Source of the DNA: an uncultured Hyphomicrobiales bacterium
Lineage (GTDB): Bacteria > Bacteroidota > Ignavibacteria > Kapaibacteriales > UBA2268
Reading direction: 5' to 3'
Assembly (NCBI GenBank): GCA_964464375.1
Contig: CAYXFU010000005.1
Coordinates: 3,495-67,494 of the forward strand
Length of the DNA: 64,000 nucleotides
The notes beneath the pieces were generated by a model. It was not told where the DNA came from and did not search any database. It saw only the letters and a program-made list of their open reading frames with translations. Shown here piece after piece: positions 1,214 through 60,985 of this stretch. Every line of letters begins with the position of its first letter. The stretch's first letter is position 1. The position numbers and the translations under genes were made by a program.

Positions 1214-4200
1214 TTATAGCCAGCTGTATAAGTGGCTACGCATACCCATAATCAACTGAGACAATTCAGATTCAATGTTAATTAACTCCGCTTTATCCCA
1301 GGAGAATTCGTGAGACCAATCGTTATCTTCAGCATCTTCTATTGCTAATCTAGTGAATAATAATCTAGCTTTTATGTTCTTTTTGTCTGGATAGAGTTTA
1401 TGAACAAAATATGCATAGGTTCGCATCTGCAGTTCATAATGCTTTGCATGCGCTTCAACTGTAAATTTTTCGTTCACAATATTAGATTTCCAGTCCCATA
1501 TCTCGATTGAGTCTTCATTTTCAATAAGCAGATCGATGCTCCCGTTCAGAATATCACCATTAATAGGAAGTATCAGATTGAACTCCGGTTTTCCATTAAG
1601 TATATGTTTCAAATTATTCTTTATCAACTTTGTCCCAGCAATTTTCCGGCATTCAATCATCAATCTGGAAGAAAGACTGGATGGAGTATCAAAGTCTGCT
1701 TTAGTATATCGGGAAATTTCATTTTTCAAAGATTCAGTATTGATAATTCCATCTTTGTTTATCCACCTTGAAATACTCTGAAGAACTGAGTGAATTGCCA
1801 AACCTGCTGTAAACCCTGTAGTAATTGGCATATCGCTTTGAATTTCAAACTCCTTGTCATAATCAATTGGATTTATATCAGGCATTCCAAATATATATTT
1901 TTTTGAATAGGATAATGAATCAGACTCATAAGTCATCAATTTAGTAGGTGAAAACATTTCATTTGTTTGGGTAGATTTTATATCCTTATTGAGCATGATT
2001 TTGTCGGATGCTTTGATAATCCTAACTTCTGAAGTTATGCCCGAAATATCAATATTTGTTAAAATATCAATCGGATAAGTGATTTTTACAGGGTATATCC
2101 TGGATTGATTATATACATTCAGTTCATCCGATATGAGGATTGTATCTTTCGCAATTATTTCTGAAAATTGAATTTCCAATGAACTGATAATATCATCAAT
2201 AAATCCATTGATGGTATAAACATCCTTCTTCTCGTTGTACTTGTATGTCGATGAAATAACTATTTTACTCTTCGATCGGGTTAGTGCAACATACAGCAAT
2301 CTCTTTTTTTCGGCTTTCTCTGCAAGTTGGCTTATCCTTTTGTTAATCAGGAATTGTGGTGTATCTAAATCTTGCTTATAGAGTTCTTCTATTGCTACAG
2401 GAATTTTATAACCAATTCCGTATTCAGGTGTAATATAATAAGACGGATTATGGTTTGGTGAAAAATTACTATTAAACAATATAACTACCGGAAATTCCAA
2501 ACCCTTGGAGGCATGTATTGTCATAATATTTACAGCATTTTCACCCGTAATAATTGCTGCTTCGCTCTCGAGTATTTTATTTCCAGAGATAAAATTCATC
2601 TCCTCAACAAAATCATAGAGATTCTTAAAACCCTTATTCTCGTATTCACGTGCTATTTGAATAAATTTATCCATATTTGCTAATATCTGATATTTTGCAT
2701 TGCTATCATTGATTGTTCCATACCAGCCACAGGTCTGATTAATCATGATAATAATCTTTGATACCGGCATTGATGTTGAAGTTGCTATGATGTTTGTTAA
2801 TGAGTCAACTATAAGGTTGTAATTTGATTCAGTTATTAAATGGTTCAATTTCTCCCAAAAGGAGCCTTCAGCCTCTGATTTTGCTATTCTATAAATAGAA
2901 CTGTCGTCCATGTTGAAGTATCTTGATCTTAGGACCGAAATCAAAGCAGCATCATCATCCGGATTGTAAATAAACTTCATAAATGATAATATATCTATGA
3001 TCTCAGGAGATTGATAGAAACCTTTTCCTGAGTGAACCAGGAAAGGTATGTTGAATTCTATGAACTTTGTTGCTAATTTCTGGAAGTTATTTTTAGTCTG
3101 ACTTAAGATTGTTATATCTTTGAATTCATAATCGTTATCGGGATCATTCACAAGTTTGAGTATATATTTTGCGATTAGATTTTCTTCCAAAAAGCCTGTA
3201 TCCTCTTCTGCCTCATCAGAAGCTTCTTCTGAATTCTTTTGGTTTGACTTCTGTGGCAACTCTGACAGAAGAAATGAAATTGACCCTAACCTGGTATCTT
3301 TAATTATATTCAGGTTGTTCTCTTCCAATGTTTCTCCATCCTTTGAGCAAATCAATGGAATGTAATCAACATCATAATCAGAGTTTTTACTGTTCATTAA
3401 TTTGCCGCATACTTTGTTAACAAACGAAGCAGGCACTGGTGATAATCGAAAAGTTGTGGTTAAATTAACATTCCCAATAGAAGACTCCACATTTGCAAGA
3501 GCAGCTTCATTCGAGCTTGTTTTTGAATTCAAGTCTGATATATCTTTTCCTGCCTGCTGGAACACCCTGACATCTGCATTGCGGAAACCATAAATGCTCT
3601 GTTTAACGTCACCGACAATAAAAAGATTTATTAAATCCTTTCCCCCATCCTTGCCTTCAAGTTCCGGCATCAATTTTTTAACTATATCATACTGCAACTG
3701 ATTTGTATCCTGGAATTCATCCACCATCAGGAAATCAACCTTGCTTCGGATTCGTGCAACAACATCAGAATTGTCGAGAAGTTTGCTGGCATACATTTGC
3801 AGATCATTAATATCCAGTGCATTGAGCAATAATTTCTCTTCATCGATTGAATGTATTACAACTTTAGAAAAATCGAGCAACAGTCTTGAAAGACCAATTT
3901 GTTCTACCTGTTTGTCGAAATTATCAACATAATTCTTAACAATATCAATCTTTTTCTGCAGTTCCTTACCATCCAAACTGTTTAGATATTCAATATCATC
4001 GGCATTATCTAAACATTTTCTAAACTCAACTCTAACACCGGTATCGGTAAGCATGAATTTTTTTAGTGCCTGATACGCATCGAGAATTGCACTGATAGTT
4101 GAGTATTCCACTACATCAGTATTCAAATAATGGGATATTTTCTTTGCATAAACTAAAGCATCAGGAAATTTCTTAGTAAGGCTGTCGATTACTCCACGAT

Positions 4201-4951
4201 TGACAATTTGGATGAGTAATTCTGCATACTGCAGGAGTGGTTCAACATATTCTCTCTGCATAATCATTTTGATTTCATCAAGGATTTCCTGATCGGATTT
4301 TGCATAGAAAACATCCAGATTCTTCTTGATTTCAATCTTATCGATAATAGCCGATACGATTGTATTGACTTTATCCTGGTTTAACATTCTGAGCATCCGC
4401 TTGGAATTATTCCTTAATTCGAAGTCCGAAGATGTCAGCCAGTCTTCCAATGTACTCTCAATTGTCTTGTTGGTTAGTCTGATCTTATCAGGTTCACTCA
4501 ACTCAGCGAAATTGAGTGGCACACCGGCTTCAATAGGATATTCTTTCAATAATGAAGAACAAAAGCTATGGATTGTCGATATTCTGGCATAGGTCAAACC
4601 TTCGCGAATTTTTCTAAGAAGGTTTATTTGCTTAAAATCCTTTTTTTGACCCTCATCAGATTTAATAAGATTCGTCAGATCTTCATCAAATGAGCGGACT
4701 ACCTTCGCAAGCATTTCTGAAGCAGCTTTGCGGGTGAATGTTATTGCAAGAATCCTTGTAGGGTCAATTCTGAATTCATTACCTTTGAAGCTGTCAATCG
4801 GCAAAGTCGCATACTGTTTCAGAATTTTTTTAAATCTTTCGACAAGTACGAAAGTTTTCCCGGAACCTGCATTAGCAGTAACGGAAAGATGCTTATCTGT
4901 TGACAATGCCGATATTTGTTCACTGGTTAAGTTCACCGGGTATCCTGACAT
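1214..4951 (-). CDS. UvrD/PcrA-family superfamily-1 helicase fused to a C-terminal RecB-like PD-(D/E)XK nuclease (AddA/RecB-like helicase-nuclease)
   Basis: The 1245-aa product has an N-terminal Walker A (ANAGSGKTFVL). The C-terminus carries nuclease motifs (GSIDLLIEN..IEIWDWKSN, QMRTYAYF = QxxxY). Confidence 0.85.
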   Translation of the reverse strand: MSGYPVNLTSEQISALSTDKHLSVTANAGSGKTFVLVERFKKILKQYATLPIDSFKGNEFRIDPTRILAITFTRKAASEMLAKVVRSFDEDLTNLIKSDEGQKKDFKQINLLRKIREGLTYARISTIHSFCSSLLKEYPIEAGVPLNFAELSEPDKIRLTNKTIESTLEDWLTSSDFELRNNSKRMLRMLNQDKVNTIVSAIIDKIEIKKNLDVFYAKSDQEILDEIKMIMQREYVEPLLQYAELLIQIVNRGVIDSLTKKFPDALVYAKKISHYLNTDVVEYSTISAILDAYQALKKFMLTDTGVRVEFRKCLDNADDIEYLNSLDGKELQKKIDIVKNYVDNFDKQVEQIGLSRLLLDFSKVVIHSIDEEKLLLNALDINDLQMYASKLLDNSDVVARIRSKVDFLMVDEFQDTNQLQYDIVKKLMPELEGKDGGKDLINLFIVGDVKQSIYGFRNADVRVFQQAGKDISDLNSKTSSNEAALANVESSIGNVNLTTTFRLSPVPASFVNKVCGKLMNSKNSDYDVDYIPLICSKDGETLEENNLNIIKDTRLGSISFLLSELPQKSNQKNSEEASDEAEEDTGFLEENLIAKYILKLVNDPDNDYEFKDITILSQTKNNFQKLATKFIEFNIPFLVHSGKGFYQSPEIIDILSFMKFIYNPDDDAALISVLRSRYFNMDDSSIYRIAKSEAEGSFWEKLNHLITESNYNLIVDSLTNIIATSTSMPVSKIIIMINQTCGWYGTINDSNAKYQILANMDKFIQIAREYENKGFKNLYDFVEEMNFISGNKILESEAAIITGENAVNIMTIHASKGLEFPVVILFNSNFSPNHNPSYYITPEYGIGYKIPVAIEELYKQDLDTPQFLINKRISQLAEKAEKKRLLYVALTRSKSKIVISSTYKYNEKKDVYTINGFIDDIISSLEIQFSEIIAKDTILISDELNVYNQSRIYPVKITYPIDILTNIDISGITSEVRIIKASDKIMLNKDIKSTQTNEMFSPTKLMTYESDSLSYSKKYIFGMPDINPIDYDKEFEIQSDMPITTGFTAGLAIHSVLQSISRWINKDGIINTESLKNEISRYTKADFDTPSSLSSRLMIECRKIAGTKLIKNNLKHILNGKPEFNLILPINGDILNGSIDLLIENEDSIEIWDWKSNIVNEKFTVEAHAKHYELQMRTYAYFVHKLYPDKKNIKARLLFTRLAIEDAEDNDWSHEFSWDKAELINIESELSQLIMGMRSHLYSWL

Positions 4952-52976: not shown

Positions 52977-54362
52977 TTACTTGCGATATTTCGAAATAAA
53001 TTCTTCCACTTCCGGTATTCCACCCTGAAATATTAGATAACCGTTGCTTGGCTCCCTATCTGTTATTTCGTTGGCTATTGGTGTTAACATAATTTCTTTT
53101 ACTTTTTCTAAATCTTGGGATTGTCCCAAAGCCCATCCTAGTTTCATGTAAGCAACCTCAGGTAACATATTCCCGGCTGGAACGACTCCGAGATCCATCA
53201 TATCACGACCAGTATCGTAAACATACATCTGCACATAGCCCCATAGTGTTTGAACAGTCATGTAAACTGCAATTCCTTTGTCCTGCGCACGTTTAAGGGC
53301 AGGATAAAGTGGCTTGTTCACATGTCCAAGACCGGTTCCAGCTATCACGATACCTTTATAGCCATTGTCGATCAATGAATCTATTATATCAGCCTTCATA
53401 TTGGGATAATAATATACAATTGCAACTCTATCATCGAAAGCTGTATTTATGATCACATTTCTATCATCACGGCGCTTTCTGTAATCGTTCCTCAGTGGAG
53501 TAATCTTTTGTCTGTCAACCATTGCAATCGGAATTTCACCAATAGTTCTGAAGGTTGATCTATATGATGAATGCATTTTTCTAACACGTGTACCCTGATG
53601 TAAGAGTCCGTAAAGGTCTGATGTCGGACCAAACATACAAACCATAACCTCAGCAATATCACTATCTGCAGCAGTTTTCACACTATGCATTAAATTTAAA
53701 GCCGCATCTGATGATGGTCTGTCACTGGAACGTTGTGAGCCAACCATAACAATAGGAACTGGTGAATTTTGTACCATGAATGATAGTATTGCTGACGTAT
53801 GATGCATTGTGTCGGTACCATGCCCAATTACTATCCCTTTAGCACCATTCTGAATCTCTCTACCGATTGCTTCTGCGGTTCCTCTCCATTGATCAGGTCC
53901 CATATTCTCACTAAAAACTCCATATAGTTTTTCAGTTTGAAGATTGCATATATCTGCAAGTTCTGGAACTGAACCATAGAGTTCTCCTGGAGAAAATGCA
54001 GGAATTACAGCACCAGTTCTATAGTCCAGACGACTTGCAATTGTGCCGCCTGTACCCAGAAGTTTAACATTGGGTTTCTTAGGATCATAAGGGAAAGCTT
54101 TTTCTGGAATTTTATAATGAGCTTCTTTTCTTCCATTAATTTGAATATCTTCTACTTTCTCTGCTGCTATACCAACGTTATAACCTGATCTTAGTTTGAT
54201 AACAATATGCTTATCGTCTCCATTCTCAGAACGTGGAAGAATGATTCCGATATGTTTTCCGGTTGCTGTTTTAATCTCAACGTCACTCCATACCAAAGCA
54301 TCAAAATTCTTCAATGTACTTAATGCCTGACCTCTATAACCTTTATATGATTCATCTGCCAT
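52977..54362 (-). CDS. gatD: Glu-tRNA(Gln) amidotransferase subunit D, archaeal type (GatD; asparaginase-like)
   Basis: LKLRSGYNVG, GTGGTIASRLDYRTGAV, HGTDTMHHTSAILSFM, QRSSDRPSSDAALN. These align closely with archaeal GatD. Confidence 0.88.
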   Translation of the reverse strand: MADESYKGYRGQALSTLKNFDALVWSDVEIKTATGKHIGIILPRSENGDDKHIVIKLRSGYNVGIAAEKVEDIQINGRKEAHYKIPEKAFPYDPKKPNVKLLGTGGTIASRLDYRTGAVIPAFSPGELYGSVPELADICNLQTEKLYGVFSENMGPDQWRGTAEAIGREIQNGAKGIVIGHGTDTMHHTSAILSFMVQNSPVPIVMVGSQRSSDRPSSDAALNLMHSVKTAADSDIAEVMVCMFGPTSDLYGLLHQGTRVRKMHSSYRSTFRTIGEIPIAMVDRQKITPLRNDYRKRRDDRNVIINTAFDDRVAIVYYYPNMKADIIDSLIDNGYKGIVIAGTGLGHVNKPLYPALKRAQDKGIAVYMTVQTLWGYVQMYVYDTGRDMMDLGVVPAGNMLPEVAYMKLGWALGQSQDLEKVKEIMLTPIANEITDREPSNGYLIFQGGIPEVEEFISKYRK

Positions 54363-54363
54363 C

Positions 54364-56286
54364 TTATGCCTCCATCTTGTAATTATTTGTTACATACTTT
54401 CTAATATGTTGTCCGCTGCATCTTCCAATAAGGTCTGCCATGATTAATCCAATTAAAAATTCTGGCTTTTTGTCATGATTATGAAATTTTTGAGCATTCA
54501 TATCTTTTAAGCATTTTTCAAATGATTGTTTGATATCTGCATCGGAAGCTGGTAATGTGATATTCCCATCAAATTTACCATCGTTTTTAATGATCATTTC
54601 CATGGAAAATAATATACCATCCTTTGTCAATGAACCATCAGACACTGATTTGAATAATAGTTCCAAATTTGAATTATTAAGTAAATCAATACTTAATTTT
54701 TTCTTTTTTAATCTTTTAGTGAACTGAATTAATGCATGAGCAACTAAAATAGGATTTAATTTTAAAGTGTTAACTGCATAGTCGAAAACTGTTGCAAATT
54801 TAGATATTGACAACGGTTCAGCGATATCGGGAGATATGTTTAAATCCAAGTACTCCTTCAATCTAATCCAATAGGGAGCTAGTATTTCTGACTTTAACCT
54901 GATTAAACGTTCCTTAGTTATCATTATAGGGGGTAAATCAGTATCAGGATACATTCTATCAGCACCTGGAAGGATACGTTCAAAGCCGTTTGTGCCATCA
55001 CGAAAAGCCTGACGGGTTTCAGATGGGATTCCGATTGTAGCTTCTTTTGCTCTAATAATTATTTCTTTGGAGGCAGTATCAGTATCGGTTTCATCGCCCC
55101 ATACTAATACTAAAGTGTCTTCTTCTTTTGCTGAAACACTTTTGCGTATCTTTTGCCCATCTGCCGATGAGATAGTATTTTCGGCACTATCAGAATGAAC
55201 CATATTAGGTGTATTTGACAAACATGCAATGACTCGTACTCTGTCAGAGACTTCCTTGCCAAAGAAAGTGTCAGTCTGAGTCTTCCAGCTTAGTAAACCT
55301 TTGAATCCTGTGAGAGTAACACATTTTACAAGTAATCCCTTTGAGATAGCATTGGCAATTGGTTCATATTGTGTTTTCTTTAATAATTTTGTTACATCAT
55401 CAGTTTTTGAGTGGAATGTATCCGTTGTTATTCCACGCTTACTGAGTTCTTCTCTTAATCTAAGAAGATTCCACTGACGCATCGCTTCGTTATATGTTAA
55501 GAGTGGAATAGATTTAATATGGGCTACCCCCTTAATTTCAATTCTAGTACCCCCTGTTACACTAACATTAACATCTTCTCTACCTGCACCAATTCCTGTT
55601 CTAGCCTTTCCAGTACTACGGGCAACCTTACGAATGATTTGATTCACATCCGCTACTTCCTGAGGAGTAAGCATTTCAGGTGCTGTTACTGTTTCAATCA
55701 AAGGCATTCCGAGTCTGTCTGTTTTGTAAACTCTTCTATGTCCAAAATCGCTAATTTCTCTGCAAGAATCTTCCTCGATAGACATTTGAATTATATTAAT
55801 TTCCCTGTCTTTATATGGAATTTTACCATTTACACTTACTATAGCTGTACGCTGAAAACCGGTAGGAATACTGCCGTCAAGATACTGCTTTCTGGCTATA
55901 TGCAATTCATCAACTATATTGCAGTCCATTAACTGTCCTACTTGAATAGCCACATCCAAAGCTTGGTCATTCATAATAAAAGGTGGGGTATCGTCCATTT
56001 CGTAAGTGCAAACAGTAGCTCTGTTTATCCTATAGACAATATCCTTTTTAGTTTTAAATTCCATCAAAGCAGTGCCATCGTACTCTCCAAGTTCTGAAAG
56101 AGTTGGTCTCATGTGCCTTAATATTTCAGCATGATATTCCTCACTATATTGACCGGCAGGACACCTGCAGAAAAGTTTACGGTCAGTGTAAAGTTGTTGA
56201 TGAACTTCCAAACCTGATTTGAAGCCTATTCTCGAGTAGTCTTCCTGTGTCATTTCTTCGAATGGCTTAAAAACAAAATCTTCCAT
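54364..56286 (-). CDS. gatE: Glu-tRNA(Gln) amidotransferase subunit E, archaeal type (GatE)
   Basis: GLEVHQQL..KLFCRCP, RPTLSELGEYD, TGFQRTAIVSVNG, DRLGMPLIETVTAPE. Collinear with archaeal GatE. Its stop lies 1 nt before the gatD start. Confidence 0.88.
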   Translation of the reverse strand: MEDFVFKPFEEMTQEDYSRIGFKSGLEVHQQLYTDRKLFCRCPAGQYSEEYHAEILRHMRPTLSELGEYDGTALMEFKTKKDIVYRINRATVCTYEMDDTPPFIMNDQALDVAIQVGQLMDCNIVDELHIARKQYLDGSIPTGFQRTAIVSVNGKIPYKDREINIIQMSIEEDSCREISDFGHRRVYKTDRLGMPLIETVTAPEMLTPQEVADVNQIIRKVARSTGKARTGIGAGREDVNVSVTGGTRIEIKGVAHIKSIPLLTYNEAMRQWNLLRLREELSKRGITTDTFHSKTDDVTKLLKKTQYEPIANAISKGLLVKCVTLTGFKGLLSWKTQTDTFFGKEVSDRVRVIACLSNTPNMVHSDSAENTISSADGQKIRKSVSAKEEDTLVLVWGDETDTDTASKEIIIRAKEATIGIPSETRQAFRDGTNGFERILPGADRMYPDTDLPPIMITKERLIRLKSEILAPYWIRLKEYLDLNISPDIAEPLSISKFATVFDYAVNTLKLNPILVAHALIQFTKRLKKKKLSIDLLNNSNLELLFKSVSDGSLTKDGILFSMEMIIKNDGKFDGNITLPASDADIKQSFEKCLKDMNAQKFHNHDKKPEFLIGLIMADLIGRCSGQHIRKYVTNNYKMEA

Positions 56287-56478: not shown

Positions 56479-56952
56479 ATGAAAAAAATATTGCTGCTAC
56501 TCATCATTGCATCTTCGATGTTGATATCCAACAATGAAGCCAAAGCTCAAATTGAAGATACAAAACTTGCCAAAATGGATCTCAGTGAATACTTAGGTGC
56601 AAGGTTATATAAACTTTTCCAGACATTCGGAACTCCGGATGATATTGCATGTTCAAATGATGAACGAGGAGAACCAATTCTTGATTTTGGTAAATTTGCT
56701 TTCCAGATTGGAGCAAAAACTGTAAATATTATTTATTTCTGGGAGAATTATCCCGGTAAAGTGATGGGATTTAAGGTTGGTGATAGCCGTGCAGACTTAG
56801 AAAAGAAATATGGTAAACCCAATGTTGAAAAGGATGCCAAGGATGGTAGTCTTATTTGGATTTATAATTTTAAAGAAATTGATAGATATTTTGTTGTGTT
56901 TTTTGATGATGACGCAAAAATCAAAAAAATGCAACTAGAGCTGATGATTTAA
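56479..56952 (+). CDS. hypothetical secreted protein
   Basis: Signal peptide MKKILLLLIIASSMLISNNEAKA; 157 aa with no recognisable domain. Confidence 0.5.
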   Translation: MKKILLLLIIASSMLISNNEAKAQIEDTKLAKMDLSEYLGARLYKLFQTFGTPDDIACSNDERGEPILDFGKFAFQIGAKTVNIIYFWENYPGKVMGFKVGDSRADLEKKYGKPNVEKDAKDGSLIWIYNFKEIDRYFVVFFDDDAKIKKMQLELMI

Positions 56953-57060
56953 TTTGGATTTAAAAAATGAATATCGCAAAAGTTTCAATTCATGTCATTC
57001 CCTCAAAAGAGGCTTAGTGAAATGTTGGTAATTGCGTTAATTCTGAGAATTAAAAACATA

Positions 57061-57230
57061 GGATGGGATACCCAATAAATGAGACTGTGTGAAAACTACG
57101 ATTACGTCATTCTGAGGGAGCGAAGCGACCGTGAGAATCCAGTATTCATGCGGTCTGGATTCTTCACTGCGTTCAGAATGACATCTAGAAATGACTTTTC
57201 ACACAATCTCTAAATCCGGGAATCCCATCC
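57061..57230. repeat. ~170-bp nested imperfect palindrome (MITE/REP-like element or structured RNA) between convergent genes
   Basis: Four concentric inverted-repeat pairs: GGATGGGATACCC (57061-73) with GGGAATCCCATCC (57218-30); GAGACTGTGTGAAAA (57081-95) with TTTTCACACAATCTC (57196-210); GTCATTCTGAG (57106-16) with TCAGAATGAC (57173-82); GAGAATCCAG (57133-42) with CTGGATTCTTC (57155-65). A degenerate half-copy (GTCATTCCCTCAAAAGAGG, ATTCTGAGAAT) lies just upstream at 56990-57060. Confidence 0.6.
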
Positions 57231-57261
57231 ATAAGGCATTTATTATTAAACTTTTGATCTA

Positions 57262-60126
57262 TCACTTTTCAAGTATTATACTCTTATACCTTTGGTATAA
57301 ATACGATACTGTGAGCAATATCAATCCTAAAGCGATGAATGAGATTATTCTGTACAAAGTTTCCAGGAATGATAAATCAAATACGAATACTTTAAGAATC
57401 GTTACACCAAACAGACCTATGGATAGTAGCCGTAGAAGCTTTATCCTTCGCCATATACCAATCATGAGCATAAATATAGAGTAAAAAATCCATATTCCCG
57501 ATAACGACAATTGTTGCATATTTCGGAATTTGCTTAATTCGCTGAAGATAAATTTGATATTATTATCATTGCTGGATTTATTGAGATTTTCAATTATCTT
57601 ATTGAAGTAATCGCTTGTTTCGGCACTTATCAGGATAACTATCATTAATATAAACATAATGAATAGAGTACCTGCGACCTTTTCCATCCAATTTGGATAA
57701 TCAATGTTTTTATTTGTAATGTTTAAAATTAATGCAGTAGAGATTATGACTATACTAAAAGCAAGGAACCTGTAATTCATAATTAAATTGAACTGATTGA
57801 TTGGATCAAAAGCAAATCCACCAAATACTGTTATTAATACACCAATAGCAATGCATCCTAAAGCTACATATATTGCAGGGTTTGTTTTTGTCTTGAAACC
57901 ATAATAAATCAAAGGTACAGAGTATATTACAAGAGAGAATGCATACGTTAAAGTACGATTAAAATAGATTGAATCTAGATTATATTTATGAGATAAATAT
58001 GCTAAATGTTCATGATAGACAGAAATTTCTGAACATATTGGAATGATTACAAAAAGAATGCATGTGGTAAATATAGCATTCGCAGCTTTTGAAAACCTTT
58101 GCGAATAATCCAAGCTCCTTTTGGTAATTACATAAATAATCGCAAGAGAAATAATAACAATCAGAAATGACAAAAAACTATAGTTCATGATAATTTGATA
58201 TGGTTCAGGCATTAGATATGTAGTACCTCCGATAAGAGTCACCACTACCCCAATACAAATGCTACCAAATGCAACATAGATTGCCGGTTCTGTTTTGGTT
58301 CTGAAACCATAATAAATGAGAGGAATGGCATAAATCAATAGCGAAAAGCCATAGGTCAGCTTTTGAGTAGATTCTATAAAGGAAGCATACTCCCAATTAG
58401 TAATGATTTGCAGATGTGTGTGATAATTAGTTATTTCATTAAAAATCAGATAAACCAGCGAAATACTCCAGAGATAGCTGTAAATTTCTGAGATATTCAA
58501 ATAATGTGTTTTATCCTGTTTCTTAAGCATGAAGCTACATAAAAAAGCCGCTACAGCTATTGAAAGAGAGGCAAACATCATTGGGTTAAGTATAATCCAA
58601 TAATTTCCAACTTTAGTATATTCCTGAGTATTAGAAATAATGAATTTGATAACAGCAAGTCCAAATGTTATCATTGTCAGTTTGTTCAGAACTTTTAGTT
58701 TTTTATTCAATCCGAAATACAAAAAGATCACTGCTTCACCGGCTAAGACTGCAACTGTTACATAATCTTTGAACTGTATAAAAGTAGCAATTACGAACAG
58801 AGCAGCGGATGAAATGAGTAATATATCTCTTCGTTGGGTATCTGAGGGATTCTTCAAGGATGATATCCGGAATAATCCGAAGTAAACAACTGCAATAATA
58901 AGTGTACACAGTCCCATCCAAGCATGATGATGTCCATCGACCACATAATTTAAATTAGAATAGAATATAACAAGGCTGATAACATTCGTGATTTTAAAAA
59001 TATCTGTATTCTTAATTTTACCTGAGTAAATAGCATAAAACTCAACTAAGACAAATAAAATCCAGAAAATGATAAGAAATATAGATGTAATCATTACATC
59101 CAATCTTGGATTATAATACTCACTGAACCATGCAAAATAAGTGAGATAAGTACCAACCAAAACCATCGGATAGATAAATTCCCATTCATTCTTTTTGATG
59201 AAAATGAGCAGAATACCAATATCAAGTAGAGAAACATAAGTAAAAAGTCCGATCTCATTTGCCTGACCGGTGCTGAGCATGAATGGAGTTAGAAAACCTC
59301 CAAGCCAGCCAAGAATCGCAACCGCCATTGAATTGTATTTGATTCCCAGCCAGAAAGTAAAAGCTGTAATTGCTGACATCATTATGAATGCAACAATCTG
59401 AGGGACCAAATGGTAAAAGTTAAAAGATGCAAATACTGATAGGAACAAAGTTGCTATACCGGCACCAATCAATCCTTGAGAGAATATTTTAAAATCCCGT
59501 TTATTAAATTGCCAGCCACCAATTATCAATGCAAAACCTGAAACAAAGCCAATTCCAACTCTTACCCATTCACTTATCCAGTTTTTATCGAAAGCATATT
59601 TGAGGAAAAAGCCGATACCGATTATCAATGCCAGAGAACCGATACGATTTAATAATTTGCCTCCAATCAACGATTCAAGTTCTTTGTTAGCAAACCAGTT
59701 TGTAGATGTTTTTCTTGGAGTTTCATTTATAAATGGAATACGTTCTTGCGGAATATCAACAGTGGGTACTTCCTGTTCTACTTTTATGTCAGGAATTTCA
59801 TCTTCAATCTCATTCTGTTGAATATATGTAAATTCTGAAACAGGCTCAACCATAGCGGGAATATTTATTTCACCGGGATCTACTGATTCTGTTATCTCAT
59901 CTGCTTGGATGACATGTTCTTGCTTCTCTGCTGATCTAGCTTCAGCATGCTGTTTAACAATTTCAGAATATGTATCGGTTTTAAAGAATTGTTGTTTCAG
60001 GAACCTGACATCATGGAAGAGCATCTTCAAATCATGTTCAACTTTACTAATTCTATTATGGTAAACCACAAGAACAATAATTGGTACAAGAAAGACAACT
60101 ATAACAATGAATATTACTCCGCCCAT
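57262..60126 (-). CDS. large polytopic membrane protein (DUF2339-like), >20 predicted TM helices
   Basis: 954 aa. N-terminal TM plus coiled region, acidic linker, then continuous hydrophobic helices with internal duplication (..IYYGFRTKTEPAIYVAFGSICIGV.. / ..IYYGFKTKTNPAIYVALGCIAIGV..). Confidence 0.7.
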   Translation of the reverse strand: MGGVIFIVIVVFLVPIIVLVVYHNRISKVEHDLKMLFHDVRFLKQQFFKTDTYSEIVKQHAEARSAEKQEHVIQADEITESVDPGEINIPAMVEPVSEFTYIQQNEIEDEIPDIKVEQEVPTVDIPQERIPFINETPRKTSTNWFANKELESLIGGKLLNRIGSLALIIGIGFFLKYAFDKNWISEWVRVGIGFVSGFALIIGGWQFNKRDFKIFSQGLIGAGIATLFLSVFASFNFYHLVPQIVAFIMMSAITAFTFWLGIKYNSMAVAILGWLGGFLTPFMLSTGQANEIGLFTYVSLLDIGILLIFIKKNEWEFIYPMVLVGTYLTYFAWFSEYYNPRLDVMITSIFLIIFWILFVLVEFYAIYSGKIKNTDIFKITNVISLVIFYSNLNYVVDGHHHAWMGLCTLIIAVVYFGLFRISSLKNPSDTQRRDILLISSAALFVIATFIQFKDYVTVAVLAGEAVIFLYFGLNKKLKVLNKLTMITFGLAVIKFIISNTQEYTKVGNYWIILNPMMFASLSIAVAAFLCSFMLKKQDKTHYLNISEIYSYLWSISLVYLIFNEITNYHTHLQIITNWEYASFIESTQKLTYGFSLLIYAIPLIYYGFRTKTEPAIYVAFGSICIGVVVTLIGGTTYLMPEPYQIIMNYSFLSFLIVIISLAIIYVITKRSLDYSQRFSKAANAIFTTCILFVIIPICSEISVYHEHLAYLSHKYNLDSIYFNRTLTYAFSLVIYSVPLIYYGFKTKTNPAIYVALGCIAIGVLITVFGGFAFDPINQFNLIMNYRFLAFSIVIISTALILNITNKNIDYPNWMEKVAGTLFIMFILMIVILISAETSDYFNKIIENLNKSSNDNNIKFIFSELSKFRNMQQLSLSGIWIFYSIFMLMIGIWRRIKLLRLLSIGLFGVTILKVFVFDLSFLETLYRIISFIALGLILLTVSYLYQRYKSIILEK

Positions 60127-60319
60127 AAATACTCTCCTTTGGCTTCCCGTAAATTTTTTTTATTAAATTACTGAAAAAAGGGGTAAAATTAAAAAATTAA
60201 CTAATCAATTGTTAGAATAATACTATTATTTTTTTAAAATCCGATAATTTTTGATAAATTTGAAAGATGCTAAGTAGCATTTTTGGTTGTATATTATTTG
60301 TCATTTATATAGATTTATC

Positions 60320-60985
60320 ATGAAGCTCATTTTTCTATTTAGTTCCATTTTTCTTGTGACTTTAAGCTTAACTACATCATCGAAAATTGCATCGTCACAT
60401 CATGACTTCAGCGGTCAATCTTGGGCGAACAACGAAATATGTATTGTTTGCCATACACCACATAATGCAAGCACAACGGTTACTGATGCTCCTCTCTGGA
60501 ACCATCAGGTTACTACAGCGACCTTTCAGGTTTATTCTAGTAATACACTAAATGCTACAATCGGTCAACCTATTGGTCCAACTAAATTATGTTTATCTTG
60601 TCATGATGGTACTGTTGCTTATGATAACTATGGAACTTCAACTAGTGGCTCTAGATTTATCTCAAGTACAAATGCAGGATACTTAGGAACTGATTTGAGA
60701 CACGAACATCCTGTTTCGTTTGAGTATAATACTGCATTAGCAGCATCAGATGGAGGACTTTACGACCCTTCAGCACAGTCTTCAGGTTTGGGTGGTACAA
60801 TTGCAAATGATTTACTTATGAATGGAAGATTAGAATGTACATCATGTCATGATGTGCACATTAAAAGAAATACTGCCGGCACTTGTACAGGTTGTCATAG
60901 TATTCATCCTATGAGAACAACATCTTTATCATTAAGAAAATCCAATACAGGGAGTGCATTGTGCCTAACATGTCATATAAAGTAA
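60320..60985 (+). CDS. small pentaheme c-type cytochrome (five CxxCH motifs), secreted or membrane-anchored
   Basis: N-terminal hydrophobic segment MKLIFLFSSIFLVTLSL. Heme-binding motifs CIVCH, CLSCH, CTSCH, CTGCH, CLTCH in ~200 aa. Confidence 0.8.
   Translation: MKLIFLFSSIFLVTLSLTTSSKIASSHHDFSGQSWANNEICIVCHTPHNASTTVTDAPLWNHQVTTATFQVYSSNTLNATIGQPIGPTKLCLSCHDGTVAYDNYGTSTSGSRFISSTNAGYLGTDLRHEHPVSFEYNTALAASDGGLYDPSAQSSGLGGTIANDLLMNGRLECTSCHDVHIKRNTAGTCTGCHSIHPMRTTSLSLRKSNTGSALCLTCHIK

Follow-up and report, generated by a model that had tools for sequence, protein, structure and literature searches.

A Probable Gene-Less Mobile Unit with an Ssn-Class REP Dimer Core in the Loop of an Older Host Hairpin

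A Nested Palindrome between Two Convergent Genes

The window analysed here, a 64-kb (64,000 nt) stretch of contig CAYXFU010000005.1, contains a 309-nt spacer between two convergent genes, one a 157-aa open reading frame (ORF) and the other encoding a DUF2339 membrane protein, and within this spacer lies a 170-bp palindrome at 57061-57230 (Table 1). Its inner part is a 130-bp non-coding unit resembling a miniature inverted-repeat transposable element (MITE), which is bounded by terminal inverted repeats (TIRs) and built around an inverted dimer of repetitive extragenic palindrome (REP) arms of the kind also described as Ssn-related motifs (SRMs). For annotation purposes, what lies here is repeat DNA of a mobile kind within a probable terminator, and neither a gene nor a riboswitch-like RNA. 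The element is probably a gene-less mobile unit with an Ssn-class REP dimer core that was inserted into the loop of an older host hairpin.

The original prediction had described four concentric inverted repeats folding into one long hairpin. All four pairs were found where it had placed them, at 57061-57073/57218-57230 (13 nt, 92% complementary), 57081-57095/57196-57210 (15 nt, 93%), 57106-57115/57173-57182 (10 nt, 100%) and 57134-57142/57155-57163 (9 nt, 100%). When a 182-nt stretch was folded as RNA, a single long interrupted hairpin was predicted for either strand, with free energies of -72.6 and -75.9 kcal/mol and z = -8.5 and -8.0 for the two strands, and none of 200 shuffles equalled these values. 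Folding of the inner 130 nt as DNA gave z = -5.4 on both strands. The long hairpin thus stands as a predicted RNA fold with z about -8, but it is not the conserved feature, since the arms of the inner dimer keep stem-loops of their own. Three DNA-level hairpin layers, each inside the next, make up the palindrome, which is thus not one structure. The 130-bp unit contains no ORF; the 97-aa ORF at 57191-57484 overlaps the DUF2339 gene on the opposite strand.

Table 1. Positions of the spacer features and flanking genes in the window.
Feature	Position	Strand	Remarks
157-aa ORF	56479-56952	+	left flank of spacer, 3' end toward palindrome
REP head and 5' stem fragment TGTCATTCC	56992-57000	+	remnant, status uncertain
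Perfect 17-nt palindrome TTAATTCTGAGAATTAA	57039-57055	.	headless
Left arm of host hairpin, GGATGGGATACCC	57061-57073	.	pairs with 57218-57230; older than insertion
Left TAAAT direct repeat (5 bp, target-site duplication)	57076-57080	.	abuts left TIR
130-bp non-coding mobile unit (MITE-like)	57081-57210	.	TIR, spacer, REP dimer, spacer, TIR
Left TIR GAGACTGTGTGAAAA	57081-57095	+	
Core of two outward-facing arms, (C/T)GTC-ATTCT...AGAAT-CCAG	57105-57183		
Long-form REP/SRM arm, CGTC-ATTCT-GAGGGAGCGAAGCGACCGTG-AGAAT-CCAG	57105-57142	+	own 5-nt stem complement, then C
12-nt spacer between arms	57143-57154	.	arms tail to tail
Short-form REP/SRM arm, TGTC-ATTCT-GAACGCAGTGA-AGAAT-CCAG	57155-57183	-	
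Right TIR TTTTCACACAATCTC	57196-57210	-	14/15; copy 2 has G for the A at 57206
Right TAAAT direct repeat (5 bp)	57211-57215	.	abuts right TIR
Right arm of host hairpin, GGGAATCCCATCC	57218-57230	.	31 nt beyond DUF2339 stop codon; probable terminator stem
DUF2339 membrane-protein gene	57262-60126	-	right flank of spacer, 3' end toward palindrome

A Second Copy of the Unit and the Host Hairpin

While blastn and nhmmer searches with the element revealed no second copy within the 64-kb window, the 130-bp unit was found again in the same organism at an unrelated locus (copy 2; L173 3615-3744). There it is placed between a PAS sensor kinase gene and the gene of a type IX secretion system (T9SS) protein, which has a T9SS sorting domain and relatives named Kapabacteria. 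The two copies are identical at 129 of 130 positions, the sole difference being at 57206, and the 15-nt TIRs match at 14/15 positions in copy 1 (the window copy) and at 15/15 in copy 2. Copy 2 is flanked by GCAT/GCAT, which is the 4-nt loop of a CGTC-type REP hairpin, TGTC-ATTCCTGT-GCAT-ACGGGAAT-C. A MITE had been one of the options in the original prediction, and it is borne out by this TIR-bounded, duplication-flanked unit with its second locus.

Among the genome matches listed, the closest relative of the unit was a diverged copy in an Ignavibacteria metagenome-assembled genome (MAG) (L139 366-511; 77% identity including a 20-bp insert), which has the same REP hairpin type and the same GCAT flanks as copy 2. 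The two loci are non-homologous and the units stand in opposite orientation. L139 was rejected as an orthologue of copy 2, the similarity being limited to the unit and the surrounding REP hairpin (L139 345-533 vs L173 3598-3765); the arrangement reflects either repeated insertion into the GCAT loop or inversion in place. Direct repeats of 5 bp were found as TAAAT at copy 1, as AAGTT/AAGTT in L096, L101 and L113 and as AACTT/AACTT in L166, with the 4-bp GCAT at copy 2 and L139.

Removal of the insert and of one TAAAT from the window sequence gave the reconstructed pre-insertion site GGATGGGATACCCAATAAATCCGGGAATCCCATCC, i.e., GGATGGGATACCC-AATAAATCC-GGGAATCCCATCC. This is a 13-bp hairpin, for which folding energies of -19.5 kcal/mol as RNA and -10.5 kcal/mol as DNA (z = -3.7) were calculated. 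On the minus (DUF2339) strand, the outer stem is followed by TATGTTTTTAATT in the present sequence and the reconstructed hairpin by UAUGUUUUUAAUU. The outer 13-bp pair is an ordinary pre-existing hairpin and, because UAUGUUUUUAAUU follows on the DUF2339 strand, probably the DUF2339 terminator; a consensus terminator scan of the present sequence yielded no site. The effect of the insertion on the host is probably small, amounting to a longer terminator hairpin.

As judged from these comparisons, the unit has been copied recently within this genome, near-identical copies being located in hairpin loops with 4-5 nt duplicated. The two loop insertions, together with L139, suggest that the target is structural, i.e., a hairpin loop. 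An Ssn-type dimer in a sharply bounded unit with a 99% identical copy provides direct sequence evidence of recent movement and, with it, a handle on how these repeats spread.

The original prediction had named a long bidirectional terminator as the sole remaining explanation should the element be unique in the genome, lack a covariation-supported structure and not be transcribed. An intrinsic terminator of this kind, unusual in length and confined to the spacer, would suit the convergent intergenic site and the T-run after the outer 13-bp stem on the DUF2339 strand. The element is not unique, however, and for 57081-57210 the terminator reading is refuted by copy 2, where the inner 130 bp recur at the identity given above between different flanks. 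Considering also that the arms are members of a repeat family found across phyla, that the terminator scan was negative and that only the outer pair fits, this explanation is hardly tenable.

Further evidence for multiple copies came from the Logan assemblies, which are built with k = 31. All four contigs on the left (157-aa) side end at 57107, and both contigs on the right (DUF2339) side end at 57176; the 30-mers 57078-57107 and 57176-57205 must therefore each occur in more than one context. These ends are in keeping with a repeat in which the common sequence runs no further than the one mismatch between the TIRs, at 57206. An inversion or foldback artefact was rejected as the cause of the breaks, as it would place the branch at 57116 and not at 57108. 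On the left side, the contigs stop at 57107 instead of 57110, and copy 2 has TGC where the left TIR of copy 1 is preceded by AAT. This implies another copy or a strain variant sharing AAT and the left TIR; a third copy is accordingly inferred from the break and was not directly observed. A metagenome scan with a 21-mer of the outer repeat gave two unrelated-looking matches (L049, L050), neither with a palindromic partner.

Going down from 61146, one JGI contig (L054) matches the window with 100% identity as far as 57081 and then continues into a different flank and gene, the flank beyond 57081 being that of copy 2. In this contig (JGI 3300045131, Ga0485169_0021537), the DUF2339 flank of copy 1 is joined at 3886-4322 to the T9SS-gene flank of copy 2 via the repeat. 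Misassembly across the repeat, giving a chimera, is the likeliest origin of this contig, although it could also represent a genuine recombinant present in its sample.

Two Directional Arms with Stem-Loops of Their Own

The heads of the two arms face outward, with CGTC at 57105-57108 on the plus strand and TGTC at 57183-57180 on the minus strand. In both arms, GTC precedes the palindrome and C follows it, and the stem ATTCT...AGAAT starts with A-T pairs and is followed by CCA. The general arm consists of (C/T)GTC, a 5-nt stem, GA, a mini-hairpin of the GCGAAGC type, GA, the stem complement and C. The short arm has ACGCAGT instead of GCGAAGC, a compensated change from G-C to A-T (pair 12-18). 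Its stem is made up of 5 bp, a G.A/A.G step, 2 bp and a 3-nt loop, amounting to nine stacked positions, two of which are non-canonical, and the long arm has a 20-nt interior. A scan of the 64-kb window for arms returned only these two, everything else being at chance level.

Conservation of the arm fold was evident from sets of 750 distinct head boxes and 150 arms, both chosen on the 5' half only. Downstream of 358 of the 750 head boxes the box's own stem complement was present, vs a mean of 23 with the stem of another arm, and the signal held for six stem types (ATTCT, ATCCT, ATTGC, ACCCT, ATGCT and ATGTT). The arms were of two length classes (24 and 32 nt), and C directly followed the stem in ~95% of the 358 self-complementary arms. 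Covariation analysis of the 150 arms revealed 106 cells with double-sided changes compared with 50 ± 8 after shuffling, a value reached in 0 of 500 shuffles, and the controls with slid pairing were all lower. Of 101 dimers, 68 had different stems in their two arms, with self-complementarity retained in each arm. The commonest dimer combines a long and a short arm with a median spacer of 21 nt, and the window dimer is of such a type. We conclude that the conserved feature is the predicted arm-level stem-loop and not the long hairpin.

By its architecture, the element belongs to the CGTC REPs and Ssn-related motifs and is not a new kind of system. CGTC-tagged REPs have a CGTC tag (variants TGTC and CCTC), a stem of 8-9 bp starting with A-T, a loop of 4-5 nt and a tail near CCA; they are mostly extragenic inverted dimers, located downstream of convergent or co-directional genes and without an associated transposase (Di Nocera, De Gregorio & Rocco 2013, PMC3733652). 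The window dimer shares with them the unpaired CGTC/TGTC head, the A-T stem start, the CCA tail, the inverted arrangement with a short spacer, the convergent genes and the lack of an adjacent transposase. It differs in that the short-arm stem comprises 5 bp, tandem G.A and 2 bp instead of a clean 8-9 bp, and in that one arm is of the long form. The host lineages found here (Ignavibacteria/Kapabacteria-like, Chloroflexota, Desulfobacterota, candidate phyla radiation (CPR) and others) are outside the five phyla of the 2013 list (PMC3733652). CGTC-1 dimers of H. neapolitanus are embedded in a 41-bp palindrome, GGGaaGCTT-GAAAaACC..., which was never found empty (PMC3733652). This palindrome resembles the GAGAC...GAAAA outer repeat of the window and the nested layout is alike, but here the palindrome around the dimer is a discrete unit, its flanks being duplicated and a further copy being present elsewhere.

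The Neisseria repeat dRS3 is a CGTC-1 repeat, which was extended to the 28-nt NTS, CGTCATTCCCGCGMAVGCGGGAATCYRG (Chenal et al. 2025, PMC11893778). The 94-aa GIY-YIG nuclease SsnA binds the NTS only as a single-stranded DNA (ssDNA) hairpin, on one strand only, and cuts a few nt upstream; cutting depends critically on the three bases GTC before the palindrome and binding on the C that follows it, and ssn genes are typically flanked by such motifs in the manner of an insertion sequence (IS) (PMC11893778). The window arms, CGTCATTC...GAATCCAG, agree with the NTS in head, stem start and tail, and both are directional hairpins. TIR-bounded, duplication-flanked units as found here are not reported in the Ssn paper (PMC11893778).

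A regulatory RNA acting on the DUF2339 gene had been among the original suggestions. In its general form, a structured RNA would be a 3'-untranslated-region element or a small RNA by which the transcript of the DUF2339 gene or of the 157-aa ORF is regulated or stabilised, and this would accord with the very stable RNA fold of both strands, with the position directly downstream of two genes and with the suggestion by Di Nocera et al. that numerous REPs undergo transcription and function as hairpins in RNA (PMC3733652). Both strands, however, fold equally well, as a DNA palindrome would, the identical unit at copy 2 is also located upstream of an unrelated gene, and differing arm types break the long hairpin yet keep the arm-level stems. 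An Rfam search at E up to 10 gave no match, only chance-level snoRNA hits being recorded, well below gathering scores and outside the element. SsnA, which is the partner protein known for repeats of this class, acts exclusively on ssDNA and does not bind RNA, and the conserved features of the arms are those important for ssDNA binding and cutting (PMC11893778). A role as structured RNA is therefore very improbable, and the suggested action on DUF2339 finds no support. A hammerhead-like reading of CUGAnGA...GAA was rejected, as the core positions misfit and Rfam gave no match.

Spread of the Arms and Recurrence of the Outer Repeats

The 23-mer of the inner left arm had an exact match in two IMG/VR contigs. 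In a slightly degenerate form, GTCATYCTGAGGGAGYGWAGCGA, it was found in >115 genome contigs from about 15 phyla among the matches listed, including Chloroflexota, Desulfobacterota, Gemmatimonadota, Bacillota, Bacteroidota, Ignavibacteria, Planctomycetota and several Patescibacteria lineages as well as Fermentibacteria, WOR-3, Acidobacteriota, Actinomycetota, Fibrobacterota, Myxococcota, Campylobacterota and one gammaproteobacterium. CPR bacteria and phage contigs are among the carriers of the stem type with G.A mismatches and GCGAAGC. A full-text literature search for the 11-mers returned primers only. The dimer pattern (GTCATYCTGAG...YTCAGRATGAC) was present in 37 IMG/VR contigs, in some of them as tandem arrays. 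Such arrays were seen at L026 8546-8969 (five units) and L038 9003-9429 (four units), with a spacing of ~78-127 bp and both at contig ends.

Outer inverted repeats surround about one quarter of 144 dimers, and roughly three in four dimers from other genomes lack them. The window TIR GAGACTGTGTGAAAA is of the same type as GAGACCTCTGCGAAA, which in units of 127-136 bp from Desulfobacterota and Planctomycetota is placed 9-12 nt beyond the dimers. In roughly a dozen dimers, all from Desulfobacterota, (TT)GAGACYTCTGCGAAA is located 4-17 nt (mostly 9-12 nt) outside the heads; by the same measure, GAGACTGTGTGAAAA of the window lies 10 and 13 nt outside. The Desulfobacterota units of 127-136 bp have TIRs of the GAGAC type and 5-bp direct repeats, and a similar outer repeat is present in the Planctomycetota units L143 and L120. 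Because similar units and 5-bp repeats recur in other phyla, the composite is a cross-phylum architecture, with a 5-bp duplication in these units, and not a local accident. The REP option of the original prediction, which had named a REP or bacterial interspersed mosaic element as an alternative to the MITE, also holds, in the form of a REP-type dimer inside a TIR-bounded unit; the nesting of the object makes both readings correct.

An ordinary cut-and-paste MITE would likewise have TIRs, short direct repeats and copies that are nearly identical, which together form its classic signature. In such a case, a DDE transposase encoded elsewhere would read the 15-bp GAGAC... TIRs and make the 5-bp duplication, with the REP/SRM dimer being cargo or an earlier insertion that does not contribute to movement, and the dimers without outer repeats show that the two components are separable. 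The Correia elements of Neisseria, which are bacterial MITEs, are like the window unit in being ~100-150 bp long, non-coding and intergenic, with TIRs, a short target duplication and long transcript hairpins; they differ in having a TA duplication, no conserved internal REP dimer and no sequence relationship to the unit. Against an ordinary MITE stands the recurrence of the whole composite, i.e., GAGAC-type repeat, 9-13-nt spacer and dimer within 127-136 bp, in Desulfobacterota, Planctomycetota and the present genome, along with the similar palindrome around CGTC-1 dimers from H. neapolitanus, whereas the interior of a MITE does not usually show conservation between phyla. Moreover, no transposase family recurred among ~1,500 ORFs adjoining the hairpins. 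These ORFs also included no parent element with the same ends and a transposase; a search by TIR was not made. We consider mobilisation by a DDE transposase unlikely, albeit worth keeping in view.

Association of the Arms with GIY-YIG Nuclease Genes

Clustering of the ~1,500 ORFs beside hairpins revealed spurious repeat translations, cellular genes, phage genes and a GIY-YIG nuclease. The latter, a single-domain protein of ~95-110 aa (PF01541), was the sole recurrent nuclease family. In L141 and L145, its gene is situated between a left and a right arm with the heads outward, and in L111 and L164, arms are found 38-125 nt from the gene on both sides. In the arm-gene-arm layout of L141, L145 and L111, the GIY-YIG gene takes the place of the inter-arm spacer of the window, and arms near-identical to the long arm of the window flank GIY-YIG genes in L141 and L213. 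In L213, a Chloroherpetonaceae MAG, the gene is surrounded by 13 window-type arms with CCA tails, long and short forms alternating at a spacing of 12 nt, equal to that of the window dimer; the arms of L215 are CCA-tailed as well.

Among 37 IMG/VR loci with GIY-YIG homologues, 20 had arms within 300 nt of the gene, 12 of these on both sides, and many carried a canonical NTS core; about one such locus would be expected by chance according to a window control. The NTS-ssnA-NTS layout of Neisseria thus corresponds to the outward-facing arms around GIY-YIG genes that are found for the window arm type in other genomes. A protein search gave at least 8,000 close GIY-YIG relatives, none of which is tied to the source organism.

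In L215-L218 (JGI 3300059600 / 3300066321, 1-2505), a 103-aa GIY-YIG (Ssn-like) gene with window-type arms is located between cas1 and cas2-cas4. A repeat/nuclease unit appears to have been inserted there inside a CRISPR adaptation module.

The gene found between the arms also bears on a REPIN, in which two REPs would be mobilised through a single-stranded intermediate by a REP-associated tyrosine transposase (RAYT), a Y1 HUH transposase of the IS200/IS605 type. REPINs are inverted REP doublets forming a hairpin and putative miniature non-autonomous elements served by a single-copy enzyme acting on ssDNA hairpins (Bertels & Rainey 2011; Nunvar 2010). The window dimer is similar in its two inverted REP-like units, which are able to fold apart or together, its extragenic position and its hairpin features of the ssDNA type. 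REPINs, however, have a GTAG head and are lineage-specific, whereas the head here is CGTC/TGTC, the gene between such arms encodes a GIY-YIG nuclease and not a Y1 transposase, and the arm sequence is cross-phylum. REPs of the CGTC type are reported not to flank genes encoding RAYTs (PMC3733652), and insertion of the IS200/IS605 type does not duplicate the target. We thus give mobilisation by a RAYT very little credence.

Proposed Mechanism and Its Weighing

In the mechanism proposed for the gene-less mobile unit, the 130 bp would have been inserted in the loop of the host hairpin with duplication of 5 bp (TAAAT). In single-stranded DNA, each arm would fold on its own strand as an ssDNA hairpin site. 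An Ssn-type GIY-YIG nuclease supplied in trans would, by analogy with Neisseria SsnA, bind the arm and nick a few nt 5' of the head. Because the heads face outward, one nick per strand would be expected, in the 9-12-nt spacers just inside the TIRs. Since window-type arms flank GIY-YIG genes elsewhere, the inner 79 bp are best read, by analogy, as a gene-less miniature of an arm-ssn-arm element.

Several observations weigh against the combined reading as an inserted unit with an Ssn-class core. With standard DNA parameters, single arms were no more stable than shuffles (z about 0), so that the arm-level fold is carried by the covariation. The published SRM pattern, HGTCWYN(0-2)YYVSBRHN(0-5)WNVSBRGN(0-2)RNCYNB, had 0 matches in the window on either strand; the arms fail it at the S/B positions, because G.A mismatches replace G/C pairs. 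Neither an ssn gene nor a transposase was found in ~100 kb of sequence from this organism. We know of no GIY-YIG nuclease that makes target-site duplications, and the Ssn link consequently accounts for the arms but not for the chemistry of insertion. The length of the duplication varies, with 5 bp at copy 1 as opposed to the 4 bp of GCAT at copy 2 and at L139, and only two copies were seen directly. Finally, the empty site was not recovered, the relatives L171 and L175 differing in synteny; in L171, an 82% homologue of the 157-aa ORF adjoins S16 and a plain terminator, and the T9SS gene's relatives, where DNA was available, differ in what lies upstream.

CGTC-type REPs (dRS3, RPE and NTS) have been known for decades with no mechanism of spread established, and Ssn, the nuclease that partners them, was not characterised until 2025. 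New in the present element are the stem type escaping the published motif, the packaging in a TIR-bounded, duplication-flanked unit and the direct evidence of recent movement. Surveys based on the SRM pattern undercount the family, because the stem type with G.A mismatches escapes it.

A more speculative extension, which we put forward tentatively and with considerable doubt, is that the 130-bp units are miniatures of a cross-phylum transposon class that is moved by an Ssn-type GIY-YIG nuclease (not a DDE or HUH enzyme), prefers hairpin loops such as those of terminators and other REPs, and duplicates 4-5 nt. If true, this would make concrete the idea of the 2025 paper that NTS-ssnA-NTS looks like an IS, and it would explain the spread of CGTC-type REPs without a known transposase.

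Upstream Fragments and Neighbouring Genes

The degenerate partial copy that had been suspected directly upstream of the palindrome came down to two short repeat-like fragments, TGTCATTCC and TTAATTCTGAGAATTAA; blastn and nhmmer revealed no decayed tandem copy of the 170-bp element. The head and stem of TGTCATTCC are the same as those of TGTCATTCCTGTGCAT, the REP hairpin that hosts copy 2, and no matching 3' half was found within 36 nt. TTAATTCTGAGAATTAA is possibly a collapsed arm (ATTCT-G-AGAAT) without a head. Each fragment is improbable by chance within 70 nt, as judged post hoc, and both look like remnants of other arms.

The DUF2339 gene contains an internal 78-nt duplication (57838-57915 vs 58246-58323, 78% identity). 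It is adjoined, in divergent orientation, by a multi-haem cytochrome c gene at 60287-60985 (+) with a doubled CXXCH motif, which is cytochrome c7-like.

On the other side of the spacer, GatD (461 aa) and GatE (640 aa) are encoded as a pair at 52977-56286 (-). GatDE is usually regarded as archaeal. Both proteins passed the NCBIfam equivalog cut-offs (GatD 519 bits vs 310, GatE 527 vs 456) and also the archaeal-type TIGR models gatD_arch and gatE_arch. The genome around the pair, with a G+C content of 34%, is clearly bacterial, as evident from bS16, Ffh, FtsY, a Mur ligase, MraY (same-strain contigs) and a T9SS protein.

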